Shown here: piece after piece, positions 6,001 to 12,000 of the stretch
Numbering within the stretch: position 1 is the first letter of the stretch
How the letters are laid out: each line of letters opens with the position of its first letter
Assembly: GCF_045037415.1 (NCBI RefSeq)
Contig: NZ_CP173440.1
Direction: 5' to 3' (one strand)
Source: Escherichia coli
GTDB lineage: Bacteria; Pseudomonadota; Gammaproteobacteria; Enterobacterales; Enterobacteriaceae
DNA length: 64,000 bases
Position numbers: made by a program

Positions 6001-9000
6001 CGTATTGCTTGAAACAAAATTCACGCCAAACTACGGCCCAGATAACGCAGATGTAGCTGTTATTGAATTTTTCGATTACATGTGTCATTTCTGTCAGCAG
6101 TCCAGTCCCGTGCTTGAAAAGGCGATTGCAGAAAATAAAAATGTTCGGACTTTCTTTAAAGACTTCACCATTTTTGCTGACCGCACACCTATCTCCGGGA
6201 TGGGGGCAAAAATTGGTCTCTACATCTTTAATAAGTACGGGCAGGAAAAATACTACGAGTTCCATAATAAGCTCATGAGTGAAGCGGGTAGGGCAATGAA
6301 GGACAGGAAGGACTATACACCTTCTAATCTGGCGGCCCTGGTCAATGGTTTAGGATATAAAGAAATACTGGATCAGCAAGGTAACTTCTTGCTTACTGTC
6401 GAAATGCGCGATCAGCTTCAGAATGTTCTTGATGCAAATATGATGCTGGCGGATAAACTCAATTATAGCGGCACGCCAGTGTTTATTGTTATGAACATGA
6501 AGAACCCGCAAAACAAAACCACAACCATTATGCCCGGTGCGCCTGATTTTTATCGCTTGCAACAGGCAATTGATAAGGCAAAAGGGAACTAAACATAGCC
6601 CTCCCTTACATAGAAATATAAGCGGAGTGTTTAATTCATTGGCAAAATTCTAGGAGTATGTATGTCGGAGGCTTTCTTGACAGTTTTCGTTGGTGGCGTC
6701 GTTTTTGCTGACGTTGTTAGTGTTTAGCGTCATACGAGTACGTAAATGGAAATGCGTCAAAGAAACACTAGCTATAGTATCTTTTGTATACTTACTTAAC
6801 TTTATAAAAGGTTACCTGAAAATGAACACCAATGTACATCATGTCCAAGAAAATTTTTATATATCATTGCAGGATTGTATAAATAAAGAAGAGAAAACAA
6901 AAAAAACATGCATTGAGTACTGGCGACGTGAAGCTGAGAGGGCGAAGGAAGAAAGCGCAAGACGTAGAGCACTGTCTATAAAGATAATTACCGAAAAAAG
7001 CATGATTCTTGAAACGTTATTTCTAAATATACAAAAAACAAATGCGCTCAAAGAACAGTATGAAAGAAACCTGATAGCTAAATGGGGTGGCGTTATTGAT
7101 GACGATAAGACAAAGGATTATGGTATATTCCTCCCTAGTTTGGAACATTTATCTGCTTATGTATCATGTGCAAAGAACGATGAATATAGCAGGGAAGTGC
7201 TTTATAACAGACCCGAATTATCAAGGGGTATCAAGTATGACAATAGTTATTACTGCCCGCAGGAAAAAAAATTCATCTATATGAGGAATGACAAATTTCG
7301 TCCAGATCTTGAACTTCTGACAAATCCTCCTTATCCTGATTTTTGTAAGAATTTACTTTACTTTTATGTCAGGTCATTTTCGCTGCATCTCAAAAAAGGA
7401 GAGCCTGGGAAACCATTGGAGATAGGTATTCGCAATTCAGTGAGCAAAAACACTTATGAAGACTTGTGTATAGGTCTGGAAATACTTATGCCATACATGT
7501 GCAAAACTGAAAGCGGCAAAGTGATTATTAATGATGAAGGATACTTATCATGTGATAGCTATTATAGAAGCATACTGGTTAACCCGAAAACAGGGGGGGC
7601 TGAGTTAGTTATATACAGAAAGGGGCGCTTTGACCATCGACAGAAACCGAATACACGAGAACCTCGTAAGTGGTTGAATGAAGATATAATAATTAAAGAA
7701 TTTCCTAACATACGAATTGTTTTTCTATATATCATATCGTGTCGGTATCAGCAGCACTTCAAAAACAGGGATATATAGTAAATGCCTCGTAAAACGTGAC
7801 CCAGTGGGCATGGAGATAATGAGGTTAATAATAAATGAATTTTACATTTGAACGATGTAAATTTCACTAAACATTAAATATTTATGGCGGTTTCTATGTT
7901 CGAACATAACATTGCTTTTAACGGCATGATGATTGTGATTGTTATCTTATCTTATCTGCTATTTAAAAGTCTTAAGTCAAAGAAAAGGCTTCAGCATAAG
8001 TATGATGAGGTGTTTAAGGCTTTTCATATTGCGAATTCAGAGTACACCGGCGGCCTAAAAGAAGTTTACAAAAACTTATCTTTAAGCAATGCTCAGTTGC
8101 AGTTCCTTGCTGTTTACTTAAATCAAGACACTGTCCAGTTTGATGGCAGAAATATTGTGTGCGAAAAAGAGGATGATGTTCAGTATATTCTTTCACTTAT
8201 ATCAGACAGCCATTTTTGGTTGGACAAATCCATGAAAGGAATAAATGAAGTGGTAAATAATACGGACGTAATAAAAGATATTAAATTATCTCTATCACCG
8301 TTCGCTTCGTTGGGTGAGCTGAATGTTATAGATGATGAGTTTAAACTGAAAAATAAAGAGTTTGATGGGTTTGCTAAACTTAAAGTTAAGTATGATGTAA
8401 AAAGGGGGTGAAAATGGCAGGGGCATTGTTTTCACTTTCTGCTGGTGGGGTGATGTTTGCAACAGCTGTTGTTATTATCATCTTTAGTGCTATGCTATAT
8501 GACAGTATAGTTAAAAGACGTTCTAAAAATATTAACCCACCAGAGTTTACAGGATCACCTCAACTAGCATCTTGCAATTGTTCAGGTGGTACTGTCCTGC
8601 TTTATCTTGATTTTGATGGAGTCCTCCATCGAAGGATGAATGAGACATTTGAAAGAATGCCTCTACTGGAAAAAATTTTAAAACAATGTCCAGAATTACA
8701 TATAGTCGTGTCCAGCAGTTGGAGGGAAACAATGACTTTAGAAGGGCTTAAATACCTTTTTCCAGTAGCATTCAGACACAGAATAATAGGTGTTACACCT
8801 TCACTTCAGGAAGTAAAGGATACCGAATATGTTCGGTACAGAGAGTGCCTTTTACATGCCAGACATATGGGGGTCAACAAGTTTATTATCATTGATGATG
8901 AATCACACCGTTTTCCACCTGGGTGCGAAAATCTGGTGTCAACGAATTACAGTGAGGGGATGACTGACCAAACAGTAGCATCTGTCATTATGAAATATTG

Positions 9001-12000
9001 TCAGTACTTAACATGAAGGGATGAATTAAAATGTTAAATATAAGTTTTTTTTGTGGGCGATGAACAGAGAATTAAAGCCGGTTATTCAGGCAGGGCAGGA
9101 ACAACCACCATGGATAATCGGCTCCCGGACATGTCCGGGCAAAGAAATCGTAGAACTAGCGCATGACAGTAAGGCGGGGTAATCGAGGCAATATCTCAAC
9201 AGTACAAATGAAATAATGCGTTGCTGGGTGGGCACCGGCAGTCAGAGCCAGCGTTCTGCAGCTGCATCAAAGGCTAAGTGTACCTGCCATTACTCCAGCT
9301 CATGAATCAGCATGCCAGCATGTTTAATGTTTAGAGTCGTCATGTTTGCATTAAGGTCTTTCATCATTCTGGTTCCGCCGCATCGCACATATTCTCTTAA
9401 TCTTCCATTGTAGGCAGCGCTGGAAGCGATTTTAAGCTGCTTTATCGGACAGGGAAGATAAGCCACTCCTTTAACGAGATCGTCCTCAACAGCGTTCAGG
9501 TAAACGGGAGAGGCCGCAATGATAAAGATATCATGCCGGTACATACTAAACAGTTCCGCAAGGGAAGGGACTTTTCCAGGCAGTATGGGGTCAGAAGTCA
9601 GCATACCCCATATGCTGGCGCTCTTTCTTCCTATCTTTGTAAACGTAGCATCATAAGGGATCGCGGGGTCAGAACTGTGTCGTAGGCCCAGACCTGCAGA
9701 AATAACCCATAAACAGATATGAGAATTAGAGTTTGCAATAGACTTAGCTGTACTCCAGTGAGCACTACAGTATATGTTTTCCGTTTCCTTAATATCATCA
9801 TTACATGTAGTGAATCGGGACTGCACAAGACTTTTCCATTGCTGATAGGCAATCTCAGTATCTGTCGTATGGTAGGGAAACACAGTGTCATGTACAGGTC
9901 CTGCTTTCTTTTTCGCGCATGTTGTAATGAGATGAATAGTCGACATTATTCAGAGCCTATAAAGAGTATTTATTATCAATAAGGTAGTGTATTTAAAGAT
10001 GGGTATACTGGATCATCTTCAGGCACCCAATAACCAGACCCGCACTCCCATTCTTCTCCAATGAATACGAACATTTGCCTGGCAAGATATCTCCTGAGTT
10101 CCTGAGAGATTACGCTCTCAATTTTTAACAGGTAACTCTTGTTCTTACAATGGGCTTTTAAGTGAGAAAGAAGTGTACTGAAGCAGCCTTGATTAGTGAT
10201 AAATACAGAAACTGATGAAACAACCAGAACAGGTTTACCCAGCAAAGATGCATGTTTGCTACGTGCACGTATATACATGTTTTCGAACAAGGCCAAGCCA
10301 TCAACATGTCTGGATTTTACTGGTATAATACTTTTATTACTTTCATCCATTAGCCTTTCAAATGTATTGATTATATTTGTAATATCAGCCTCTAATATTT
10401 TTTGATTAATTATCATTGTACTCTGCAACCCCGGTGTTTGTAACATTCTTAACATCACTGATTAAACTAATATCTACAGAATGTGCCAGTGTTGTTAGCT
10501 CGGTAAAGTTAATTTTTTCGTAATAACCATCACTGATTAAGTTTAATAAATTAAAGTCCAGGGCAGGTGGTGGGCAAATGCTTCCAGAAGTGTAAAGATA
10601 CTCAAGCCCACGCGCATCAAATATGCCGTGAGGGGCACCCTCTGATAGTTTTCCACCTGAATATAACTCAACCCATATCCTGAGTCGGTAATCCAGAGTG
10701 AATTCACCTATCTCAATCCAGAAATGTGGATATAACTCAAAATACGTTTTGGGGTTTTTAACTACCCCGCACATTCGTTGATGAGAAATGCCTGCATGAT
10801 TTAGAGCACTGCTTATCATTAATGTATGACCATCGCACTCAACGGGTGCATTCTCAATAGCCTGTAAGAGATTGTTTAACTTCACAAGACAATCGGGCAT
10901 AAGGATATTGGCCATATAAATACCTATTCCGGAATTTCTGAGAGGAATTCATTAAAGAGATTATCATCGTACAGTGGGTATAATTGCTTCATCATACCAA
11001 AACCGGACATAGCTGCACTTCGCAAGTCGGGATAAAAAGTAGGCTTAGTGATAAGATCGCATTCATTCTTCAGCACACCTTCGAAGCAGCCGTAATCTTC
11101 CCCAAACTCCTGAACTATCATCCAACGGCCATCCTTGCATTCAACTACCATAATAGCAGACTTGGGGTAGTCGCCAGCTGGGGTCAACCAATCAAAATGG
11201 TAGTGGGTGATAGTTTGATAACTCTTATGGACATTCATAGCATTAACCCTAATGCAAGACTTACAACGTGAGAGGTTAGTGTCTGATAAAGCACTGTATA
11301 TATATGGGTCTTCCCTTGTTGTGGTGGCTGAAGGCATGATAATGGCGTATTAAATCGCCAGAGGTCACCACCATGGACGAAAAGTCCCTCTATGCACATA
11401 TCCTCAACTTGTCAGCTCCGTGGCAGGTAAAGTCTCTTTCTCTCGATGAAAATGCCGCTTCTGTTACCGTTACTGTCGGAATCGCTGAAAATACTCAGTT
11501 AACCTGTCCAGCCTGCGGGAAATCCTGCCCCGTTCACGATCACCGGCATCGTAAATGGCGCCACCTCGATACCTGCCAGTTCGCCACGATAGTTGAAGCC
11601 AGTGTGCCCCGTGTTATGTGTCCGAAGCATGGATGCCAGACTTTGCCTGTTCCGTGGGCGGGGCCCGGCAGCCGGTATACGCTGCTGTTCGAATCATTCG
11701 TGCTTTCATGGCTGAAAATCAGCACTGTTGATGCGGTCAGGAAACAACTCAAACTGAGCTGGAATGCCGTTGACGGCATTATGACCCGCGCGGTTAAACG
11801 AGGTCTTGCACGCATAAAAAAGCCGTTAGCAGCCCGGCATATGAATGTGGACGAGGTCGCTTTTAAAAAAGGACATCGTTATATAACGGTGATCTCCGAT
11901 CGTGACGGGCGGGCGCTGGCTTTAACGGATGATCGAGGTAAGGAAAGTCTTGCCGGTTACCTCAGAACCCTGACTGACGGACAGCTGCAGGCCATTAAAA

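Follow-up and report, generated by a model that had tools for sequence, protein, structure and literature searches.

A membrane-tethered HAD_SAK_2 phosphatase-family protein in the transfer accessory cluster of IncHI plasmids, and the breakdown of a supposed three-gene unit

Do three adjoining plasmid genes of no assigned pathway form one functional module, and what is encoded by the only one of them with a recognisable domain? The question is raised by positions 6690-9016 of a 64,000-nucleotide stretch of Escherichia coli DNA (NCBI RefSeq assembly GCF_045037415.1, contig NZ_CP173440.1), the whole of which is referred to here as the window. A preliminary description had read this segment as a unit of three genes (genes 1, 2 and 3), two of them encoding membrane-anchored proteins and one a protein with a HAD-like motif, and had proposed that, together with the neighbouring thiol-disulfide oxidoreductase genes, they make up an envelope-directed module. 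Three open reading frames (ORFs), all in one orientation, were confirmed in this segment, and a HAD fold for the gene 3 product is firmly supported; the unit itself did not survive comparison with related plasmids, and an envelope-directed role is unlikely.

A Pfam scan of the gene 3 product returned a single match, to PF18143 HAD_SAK_2 (E = 3.9e-23), which scored 82.8 bits against a gathering cutoff of 27.5 and covered profile positions 1-139 of 139; the resemblance to HAD motif I that had been noted in the stretch LYLDFDGVLH (residues 62-71 counted from ATG 8414) is therefore real. PF18143 was also carried by all but one of 70 homolog clusters of gene 3. The PHROGs match was to phrog_1818, of unknown function, and no match was obtained in NCBIfam or PADLOC. 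Residue conservation was assessed in an alignment of 51 family homologs, in which F67, D68, G69, V70, S101, W103, R104 and R141 are invariant and conservation reaches 90% or more at D66, S100, S102, E105, R123, G126, T128, P129, E144, D161 and D162. On this alignment the superfamily motifs I, II and IV (Table 1) are intact, and the candidates for motif III, the Lys/Arg that stabilises the phospho-aspartate, are the invariant R104 and R141 and the nearly invariant R123. None of the six cysteines of the protein is invariant across the alignment.

The HAD fold, for which structure prediction had been suggested as a check, is supported by an AlphaFold2 model together with the motifs. The model, built on the homolog alignment (predicted local distance difference test score (pLDDT) 88), consists of a helix (residues 3-38), a low-pLDDT linker (39-60) and a compact alpha/beta domain (61-200) that has the Rossmannoid alpha/beta fold of the HAD superfamily and no cap insertion. 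Single-sequence and profile searches detected no solved structure for gene 3. By fold, the nearest solved structures are capless HAD phosphatases that act on phosphoproteins, with a modest margin over small-molecule HADs. The FCP/SCP-type and MDP-1 HADs (UBLCP1, 3shq; SCP1, 1t9z; MDP-1, 1u7o; Legionella Lem4, 6cgj) share 8-16% identity with gene 3, which, unlike the FCP/SCP enzymes, has no Pfam NIF match and no FCP/SCP insertion domain, and membership of that group is not claimed. Judged from its sequence, gene 3 very likely encodes a functional Mg2+-dependent aspartyl-phosphatase, and both the phosphatase activity and the class of substrate are to be taken as predictions. The HAD label itself is already present in RefSeq.

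The N-terminal transmembrane helix attributed to the third protein was borne out by a 19-residue Kyte-Doolittle mean of 2.33 at residues 10-28, and gene 2 has a comparable hydrophobic helix (mean 2.08, residues 5-23) followed by KSLKSKKR. The two membrane-anchored proteins of the segment are thus those of genes 2 and 3; gene 1 is not one of them once its start is corrected to ATG 6822. In gene 3 there are no lysine or arginine residues among the nine N-terminal of the helix and four among the 15 C-terminal of it, and in gene 2 there are none before and six after, the reverse of the periplasm-facing DsbA-like neighbour, which has three before its helix and none after. Because of this distribution, genes 2 and 3 are predicted under the positive-inside rule to be N-out/C-in with cytoplasmic soluble domains, and the gene 3 domain probably faces the cytoplasm. 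By the same rule-based prediction, neither gene has the signal peptide or the N-in/C-out orientation expected of a periplasmic module. Homologs at 79 of 80 genomic loci are ~145-160 aa long and mostly begin within a few residues of motif I; typical homologs have no signal peptide, and the IncHI1 and IncHI2 orthologs no membrane helix. The charge rule, the helix-free family members and the lack of an invariant cysteine together make the envelope-directed role proposed earlier unlikely.

The distribution of the three genes was determined by tblastn against PLSDB. The HAD gene was found in 2042 records, of which 1772 are conjugative and 663 hold the full-length protein with its membrane helix, and gene 1 was found in 441. 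The order dsbA-gene 1-gene 2-gene 3 is that of the window type (IncHI1B/FIB). In the pLVPK type, whose plasmids are non-mobilizable and have the DsbC-like gene interrupted by IS1, dsbA is followed by an ~18-nt remnant of the 3′ end of gene 1, an unrelated 191-aa ORF, and genes 2 and 3. The IncHI5 plasmid p12084-HI5 has dsbA-gene 2-gene 3 without gene 1, and an IncHI5-like contig (L005) has dsbA-gene 2-gene 3-gene 1. Both genes 1 and 2 are missing from two more distant lineages: in one (L099, 52% identity) dsbA is followed by a non-homologous transmembrane protein and gene 3, the protein at the gene 2 position having no detectable homology to gene 2, and in the other (L102, 58% identity) dsbA is followed directly by gene 3. 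In IncHI2 and in the IncHI1 plasmids pB71 and R27 the HAD gene follows the SLT (lytic transglycosylase) gene, between it and trhG, and gene 2 is absent.

Across IncHI1B-FIB, IncHI5, IncHI2, IncHI1 and divergent metagenomic relatives, the HAD gene adjoins, or lies at most 4 kb from, genes for SLT, DsbC, DsbA or TraG. Of the three genes, it alone is kept across the IncHI plasmids sampled, always in the trhG/SLT/Dsb accessory cluster, and the comparison points to separate evolutionary histories and not to one module. The supposed three-gene unit falls apart, given that gene 1 is moved, deleted or absent between lineages and gene 2 is missing in IncHI1, IncHI2 and the lineages of 52-58% identity; its linkage to thiol-disulfide oxidoreductase genes, as far as the HAD gene is concerned, is real and old, being seen in IncHI1, HI2, HI5 and HI1B. 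The preliminary description had itself named the absence of a HAD fold and of co-conservation as grounds for giving it up, and it stands by half: the fold is predicted, and the three genes are not co-conserved.

The HAD protein is diverging faster than its neighbours: between the window and R27 it shares ~34-41% identity and the SLT protein 66%. Across four IncHI subgroups the orthologs of the window HAD protein are 34-46% identical to it. The ratio of nonsynonymous to synonymous substitution rates (dN/dS) against IncHI5 orthologs was 0.36 for gene 1, 0.17 for gene 2 and 0.24 for gene 3, so that all three are under purifying selection, which is tighter for dsbA (0.04) and dsbC (0.08). The same ratio between the window and pLVPK-type plasmids rests on few differences between the sequences, too few for a reading.

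The interval between dsbA and gene 2 (window 6610-7880; contig L009 5220-6000) is a variable spot. It is nearly empty in IncHI5 plasmids, and in the pLVPK type only the last ~18 nt of gene 1 and the shared sequence GCCTCGTAAAACGTGACCC remain ahead of the 191-aa ORF. A family-wide pairing of SLT and HAD genes was also considered and rejected: an SLT-profile match lay nearby at only 1 of 80 genomic loci, on an IncHI5-like Klebsiella contig. A non-IncHI metagenome contig (L014, 4440-5512) carries a 139-aa HAD_SAK_2 gene 2 nt downstream of an SLT-domain gene, a pair reminiscent of the order SLT-HAD in IncHI1 and IncHI2, although the SLT of L014 shares only 22% identity with that of the IncHI plasmids.

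Gene 2 encodes a protein of narrow distribution, with 14 clusters among 5.8 billion proteins, and every cluster with a named source is from Klebsiella; no match was found in Pfam, NCBIfam, PHROG, PADLOC or PDB sequences. It is limited to the Klebsiella/Raoultella IncHI1B/IncHI5 subclade. The 4-bp overlap with gene 3 that had been described holds in part. In the window it requires a start at GTG 8408, a doubtful choice that abuts the GGGGG Shine-Dalgarno sequence with zero spacing; ATG 8414 stands 6 nt past this sequence and lines up with the start codon of the gene 3 ortholog in IncHI5. With ATG 8414 as the favoured start, the junction in the window reads TGA-AA-ATG, a gap of 2 nt, and it is in IncHI5 plasmids that a genuine ATGA overlap of genes 2 and 3 is found. 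The two genes are tightly coupled with either start, and their PLSDB counts are close (656 records for gene 2, 663 for the HAD protein that includes the membrane helix). Most simply, gene 2 is the coupled membrane partner of gene 3, with which its product may form a complex.

Gene 1 proved to be of another kind. The preliminary description had taken TTG 6690 as its start, which would add 44 residues that include a hydrophobic stretch, and no Shine-Dalgarno sequence lies upstream of this codon. RefSeq uses ATG 6822, and P0073, at 62% identity the sole homolog that is both divergent and full-length, has its first codon at precisely this point and no such extension; on these sequence comparisons the start is almost certainly ATG 6822. 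With translation from ATG 6822, hydropathy stays below 1.6 in every 19-residue window, and an AlphaFold2 model (pLDDT 73) shows an N-terminal helix of ~84 residues and a C-terminal alpha/beta domain, the C-terminal hydrophobic stretch being modelled as a helix (297-309) inside the C-terminal region. In view of the corrected start, the lack of a hydrophobic window and the placement of that stretch in a modelled helix, the protein is predicted to be soluble and without a membrane anchor. The family search gave 18 matches among 1.84 billion representatives, and no Pfam or PDB match was found. The family has an invariant PDLxxLxNPPYxxFC motif (window 7300-7345, residues ~161-175), and in N6-adenine/N4-cytosine DNA methyltransferases NPPY serves as the catalytic motif. 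Gene 1 was accordingly considered as a methyltransferase of this type, but no S-adenosylmethionine-binding motif I (FxGxG) and no methyltransferase profile match was found. It is an independent soluble accessory gene, unrelated to genes 2 and 3. Upstream of it lies a 21-codon ORF, MSEAFLTVFVGGVVFADVVSV (window 6662-6727, plus strand), preceded at a distance of 6 nt by the ribosome-binding site AGGAG; the ORF overlaps the 6690..6821 stretch and a weak terminator-like hairpin (6688-6713), and its segment is absent as a whole from pLVPK-type plasmids.

A link of the HAD gene to conjugation was sought in R27. The gene order of this plasmid fits the published tags at three anchors, namely trhF (R0126), SLT ("bfpH, trbN-like"; R0130) and dsbA (R0135), and by the order between these anchors the R27 HAD gene would be R0129. 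In a transcriptome comparison of 37 °C with 25 °C, the temperature that permits mating of R27, levels at 25 °C were raised 3.76-fold for R0129 and 3.13-fold for R0130, and R0130 and R0135 were proposed by the authors as possible contributors to plasmid transfer (PMC7366339, Table 1). In dsbC-null hosts the DsbC homolog of R27 plays a part in conjugation, according to the summary given in PMC10838148. Literature searches on R0129 and on IncHI1B/pNDM-MAR conjugation returned no functional study of R0129, and no paper in the library searched deals with the HAD gene itself.

The reading we prefer, and hold with roughly even confidence, is that gene 3 encodes a tethered cytoplasmic HAD phosphatase that serves plasmid transfer or establishment, with gene 2 as its partner and gene 1 unrelated. 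Asp66 would act as nucleophile and Asp68 as acid/base, with Asp161 and Asp162 holding Mg2+, and the single N-terminal helix and the flexible linker of ~20 residues would hold the catalytic domain against the inner membrane on its cytoplasmic side. There it could remove phosphomonoesters from a substrate of large size, either a phosphorylated protein or the end of a nucleic acid, near the membrane-bound mating apparatus, and would thereby serve transfer or establishment of the plasmid; gene 2 would probably be an adaptor or regulator of gene 3, in a manner that recalls, by analogy only, NEP1-R1/Spo7 beside CTDNEP1/Nem1. A role of gene 3 in the IncHI transfer or establishment programme is more probable than not. 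The capless fold of the model and its nearest structural neighbours tip the balance slightly towards such a large substrate. A bolder form of the preferred reading is offered tentatively and is itself rather unlikely: the HAD protein would be an unrecognised conjugation accessory enzyme of IncHI (MOBH/MPF-F) plasmids, tethered or recruited to a site on the inner membrane close to the type IV secretion system (T4SS) and dephosphorylating protein or nucleic acid to promote transfer or the first steps of establishment in a recipient (one example would be to counter a host defence that depends on phosphate), and gene 2 would be its dedicated adaptor in Klebsiella plasmids.

Several points weigh against the preferred reading. 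R0129 is identified as the HAD gene by gene order and not by a printed locus tag, and the predicted topology is based solely on the positive-inside rule. The pLVPK-type plasmids, which have lost the mating apparatus, retain intact genes 2 and 3, and this persistence on non-conjugative plasmids fits poorly with an exclusive role in transfer. The HAD_SAK_2 family is without any experimental study and without a solved structure detectable by sequence, and the literature search found no paper naming HAD_SAK_2. Outside IncHI plasmids, the HAD gene has no recurrent neighbour: 105 of the 123 neighbour clusters at the 80 genome loci are singletons. The small groups that do recur are AAA+ ATPases, integrases, XRE regulators, calcineurin-like phosphoesterases and a paralogous HAD, and no pathway emerged from the neighbours of HAD_SAK_2 at these loci. 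A link to "polyvalent proteins" was also tried and dropped, the paper concerned making no mention of this HAD domain.

Among the alternatives, the one that fares best is an RNA or DNA end-healing phosphatase that removes the 3′ (or 2′) phosphates left by metal-independent RNases (anticodon nucleases, colicins, HEPN toxins) and so protects the plasmid-bearing or newly invaded cell. The HAD 3′-phosphatase domain of the phage T4 polynucleotide kinase-phosphatase applies DxDxT aspartyl-phosphatase chemistry to nucleic-acid 3′ ends, and a 3′-end activity of this kind is what is predicted for SAK-type HADs. The Pfam family is named for the 'Swiss Army Knife RNA repair proteins', PF18143 being the HAD domain of these proteins (Burroughs & Aravind 2016, as cited in PMC7824862), and Iyer et al. 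2021 (PMC7824862) present the Swiss-army-knife HAD as a phosphatase for linear phosphates in phage RNA repair, one that mostly stands alone. One homolog (P0059) is fused to nucleotidyltransferase domains, the recurrent neighbours listed above include calcineurin-like phosphoesterase and AAA+ genes, and a homolog on a Citrobacter MOBH plasmid lies within an array of small genes with Lar restriction alleviation and toxin-antitoxin pairs. Unlike the 'Swiss Army Knife' RNA repair system, the genes scanned at 4165-10915 encode no RNA ligase or polynucleotide kinase domain, and none is annotated near the HAD gene in the IncHI1, IncHI2 and IncHI5 contexts. End-healing is a minority reading, to which we give a low probability.

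A small-molecule or lipid phosphatase, with sugar phosphates, nucleotides and the phosphates of membrane lipids as examples of its substrates, would leave the proximity of the HAD gene to tra genes as a matter of backbone history with no mechanistic link to conjugation. Against this proposal, the position of the gene within the tra accessory cluster is retained in four IncHI subgroups even though protein identities are only 34-46%, the R27 gene at the HAD position is co-induced with transfer genes, and no metabolic pathway genes are linked to it, so we consider it unlikely. The envelope-directed three-gene module, in which a periplasmic phosphatase domain works with the DsbA- and DsbC-like oxidoreductases, could call on the shared strand and adjoining position of the DsbC-like and DsbA-like genes, the six cysteines of gene 3 and the place of the HAD gene after that of a periplasmic lytic transglycosylase in IncHI1, IncHI2 and the unrelated contig L014, but is highly improbable given a charge distribution that predicts a cytoplasmic C-terminal domain, the lack of a signal peptide or membrane helix in the IncHI1/IncHI2 orthologs and ~79 of 80 genomic homologs, the absence of a family-invariant cysteine, a corrected gene 1 without export signal, and three genes that are not co-conserved.

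Set beside known systems, gene 3 resembles other HAD_SAK_2 members in its full-length domain match, its DFDGV/SSSWRE/DD signatures and its carriage on a mobile element, as for most members. It differs in that typical members are soluble standalone proteins of ~140-160 aa, whereas gene 3 has an N-terminal extension of ~60 residues with helix and linker, is coupled to a membrane-protein partner and keeps to one place in a cluster of conjugation accessory genes. R0129 of R27 (IncHI1) and its IncHI2 and IncHI5 counterparts share with gene 3 the orthologous position in the trhG-SLT-DsbC-DsbA cluster and the label 'HAD domain-containing protein', but in the HAD domain they are only ~34-46% identical to it. 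Those of IncHI1 and IncHI2 further differ in having no membrane helix, in being encoded directly downstream of SLT, in the opposite arm of the divergent cluster, and in having no gene 1 or gene 2 beside them. A working analogy for the preferred reading is provided by CTDNEP1-NEP1R1 / Nem1-Spo7, in which a capless HAD anchored by an N-terminal helix is joined by a small membrane regulatory subunit, and 8ujl is among the fold matches of gene 3. The likeness is one of architecture only, as these complexes are eukaryotic and gene 2 has no detectable NEP1-R1 homology.

Table 1 Features of the locus, with positions in the window
Feature	Position	Strand	Remarks
Gene 3, 200-aa membrane-tethered HAD_SAK_2 phosphatase-family protein	8414..9016	+	RefSeq WP_004181934.1
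Gene 3 transmembrane anchor, residues ~10-28	8441..8497	+	AGGVMFATAVVIIIFSAML, then KRRSK and low-confidence linker (~39-60)
HAD motif I, D66-F-D68-G-V70	8609..8623	+	predicted nucleophile Asp and general acid/base Asp, after strand 61-65 in model
HAD motif II / family signature, S100-S-S-W-R-E105	8711..8728	+	end of strand 95-99 in model
HAD motif IV, D161-D162 (predicted Mg2+ ligands)	8894..8899	+	end of strand 157-161 in model
Gene 2, 171-aa single-pass membrane protein	7896..8411	+	predicted N-out/C-in, ~145-aa cytoplasmic domain
Gene 1, 318-aa soluble protein of a rare plasmid-borne family without a name	6822..7778	+	start set by homolog P0073
Stretch once counted as gene 1 N-terminus	6690..6821	+	probably untranslated in that frame
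T4SS-type lytic transglycosylase (SLT)	3419..4033	-	66% identity to R27 R0130
DsbC-like gene	4165-4893	+	Pfam DsbC_N/Thioredoxin_2
Small exported or membrane protein	4910-5221	+	between DsbC-like and DsbA-like genes
Small exported or membrane protein	5235-5576	+	between DsbC-like and DsbA-like genes
Membrane-anchored DsbA-like gene	5636-6592	+	Pfam DSBA

The replicon that carries the locus was characterised by comparison with PLSDB. Bases 6600-9100 of the window are 100% identical to many Klebsiella pneumoniae plasmids of ~250-450 kb, and the 621 matching records include 591 from Klebsiella. One identical plasmid, pKpvST147B_virulence (NZ_CP040726), is typed IncFIB/IncHI1B, MOBH, MPF-F and conjugative, and the window appears to belong to an IncHI1B/IncFIB hybrid virulence-resistance plasmid of Klebsiella pneumoniae type. 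The RefSeq order in pKpvST147B_virulence is TraH, TraG, a superfamily 1 (SF1) helicase, SLT (on the opposite strand), the DsbC-like gene, two small genes, the DsbA-family gene and genes 1-3, with genes 1 and 2 labelled hypothetical and gene 3 "HAD domain-containing protein". The four genes upstream of genes 1-3 (DsbC-like, two small genes, DsbA-like; 4165..6592, plus strand) form a conserved IncHI accessory cluster. A scan of 6400-9400 gave 12 promoter-like sites, in line with the shuffled expectation (9.6 ± 3.0), and five terminator-like sites (expectation 2.0 ± 1.5), none of them 3′ of gene 3.

The SF1 helicase (window 39-3149, plus strand; 1113 aa; RefSeq 'DEAD/DEAH box helicase'), placed between TraG and the cluster of SLT and Dsb genes, gives a match to the Mokosh MkoC model of PADLOC (E = 4e-70) and is missing at the corresponding position in IncHI1 and IncHI2. 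The interval from the HAD gene to trhG is empty in IncHI1 and holds HNH endonuclease/YrhA genes in IncHI2. Convergent with gene 3 are four genes at 9290-11337 (minus strand). The first encodes a DUF6884 protein with a PADLOC DpdC match (E = 9e-42), and a DUF6884 gene is also present in R27, though at another location; the other three have no known function, and one of them matches phrog_30866. Beyond them, at 11373-14172 (plus strand), the back-to-back transposase genes of the ISL3-like ISCfr12 and the ISNCY-like ISKpn21 divide the IncHI backbone block from a block of hemB, dihydroorotase and threonine-tRNA ligase genes, which in the pLVPK-type plasmid, too, comes after the backbone genes.

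The new elements are modest. They are a membrane-tethered HAD variant with a coupled partner, the recognition of the HAD gene as a pan-IncHI backbone gene of the tra accessory cluster (in R27 its counterpart is thermoregulated together with transfer genes), and the breakdown of the supposed three-gene unit. Should the proposed role be wrong, the result would be a routine annotation of a HAD-domain protein flanked by two lineage-restricted orphan genes. IncHI megaplasmids are major vehicles of resistance, among them the K. pneumoniae IncHI1B/FIB hybrids that join hypervirulence to carbapenem resistance, and the phosphatase gene is present in about 2,000 sequenced plasmids. If a role in transfer or establishment is true, the protein would add a new activity to the accessory functions of conjugation, and its small soluble domain would make it a tractable target.

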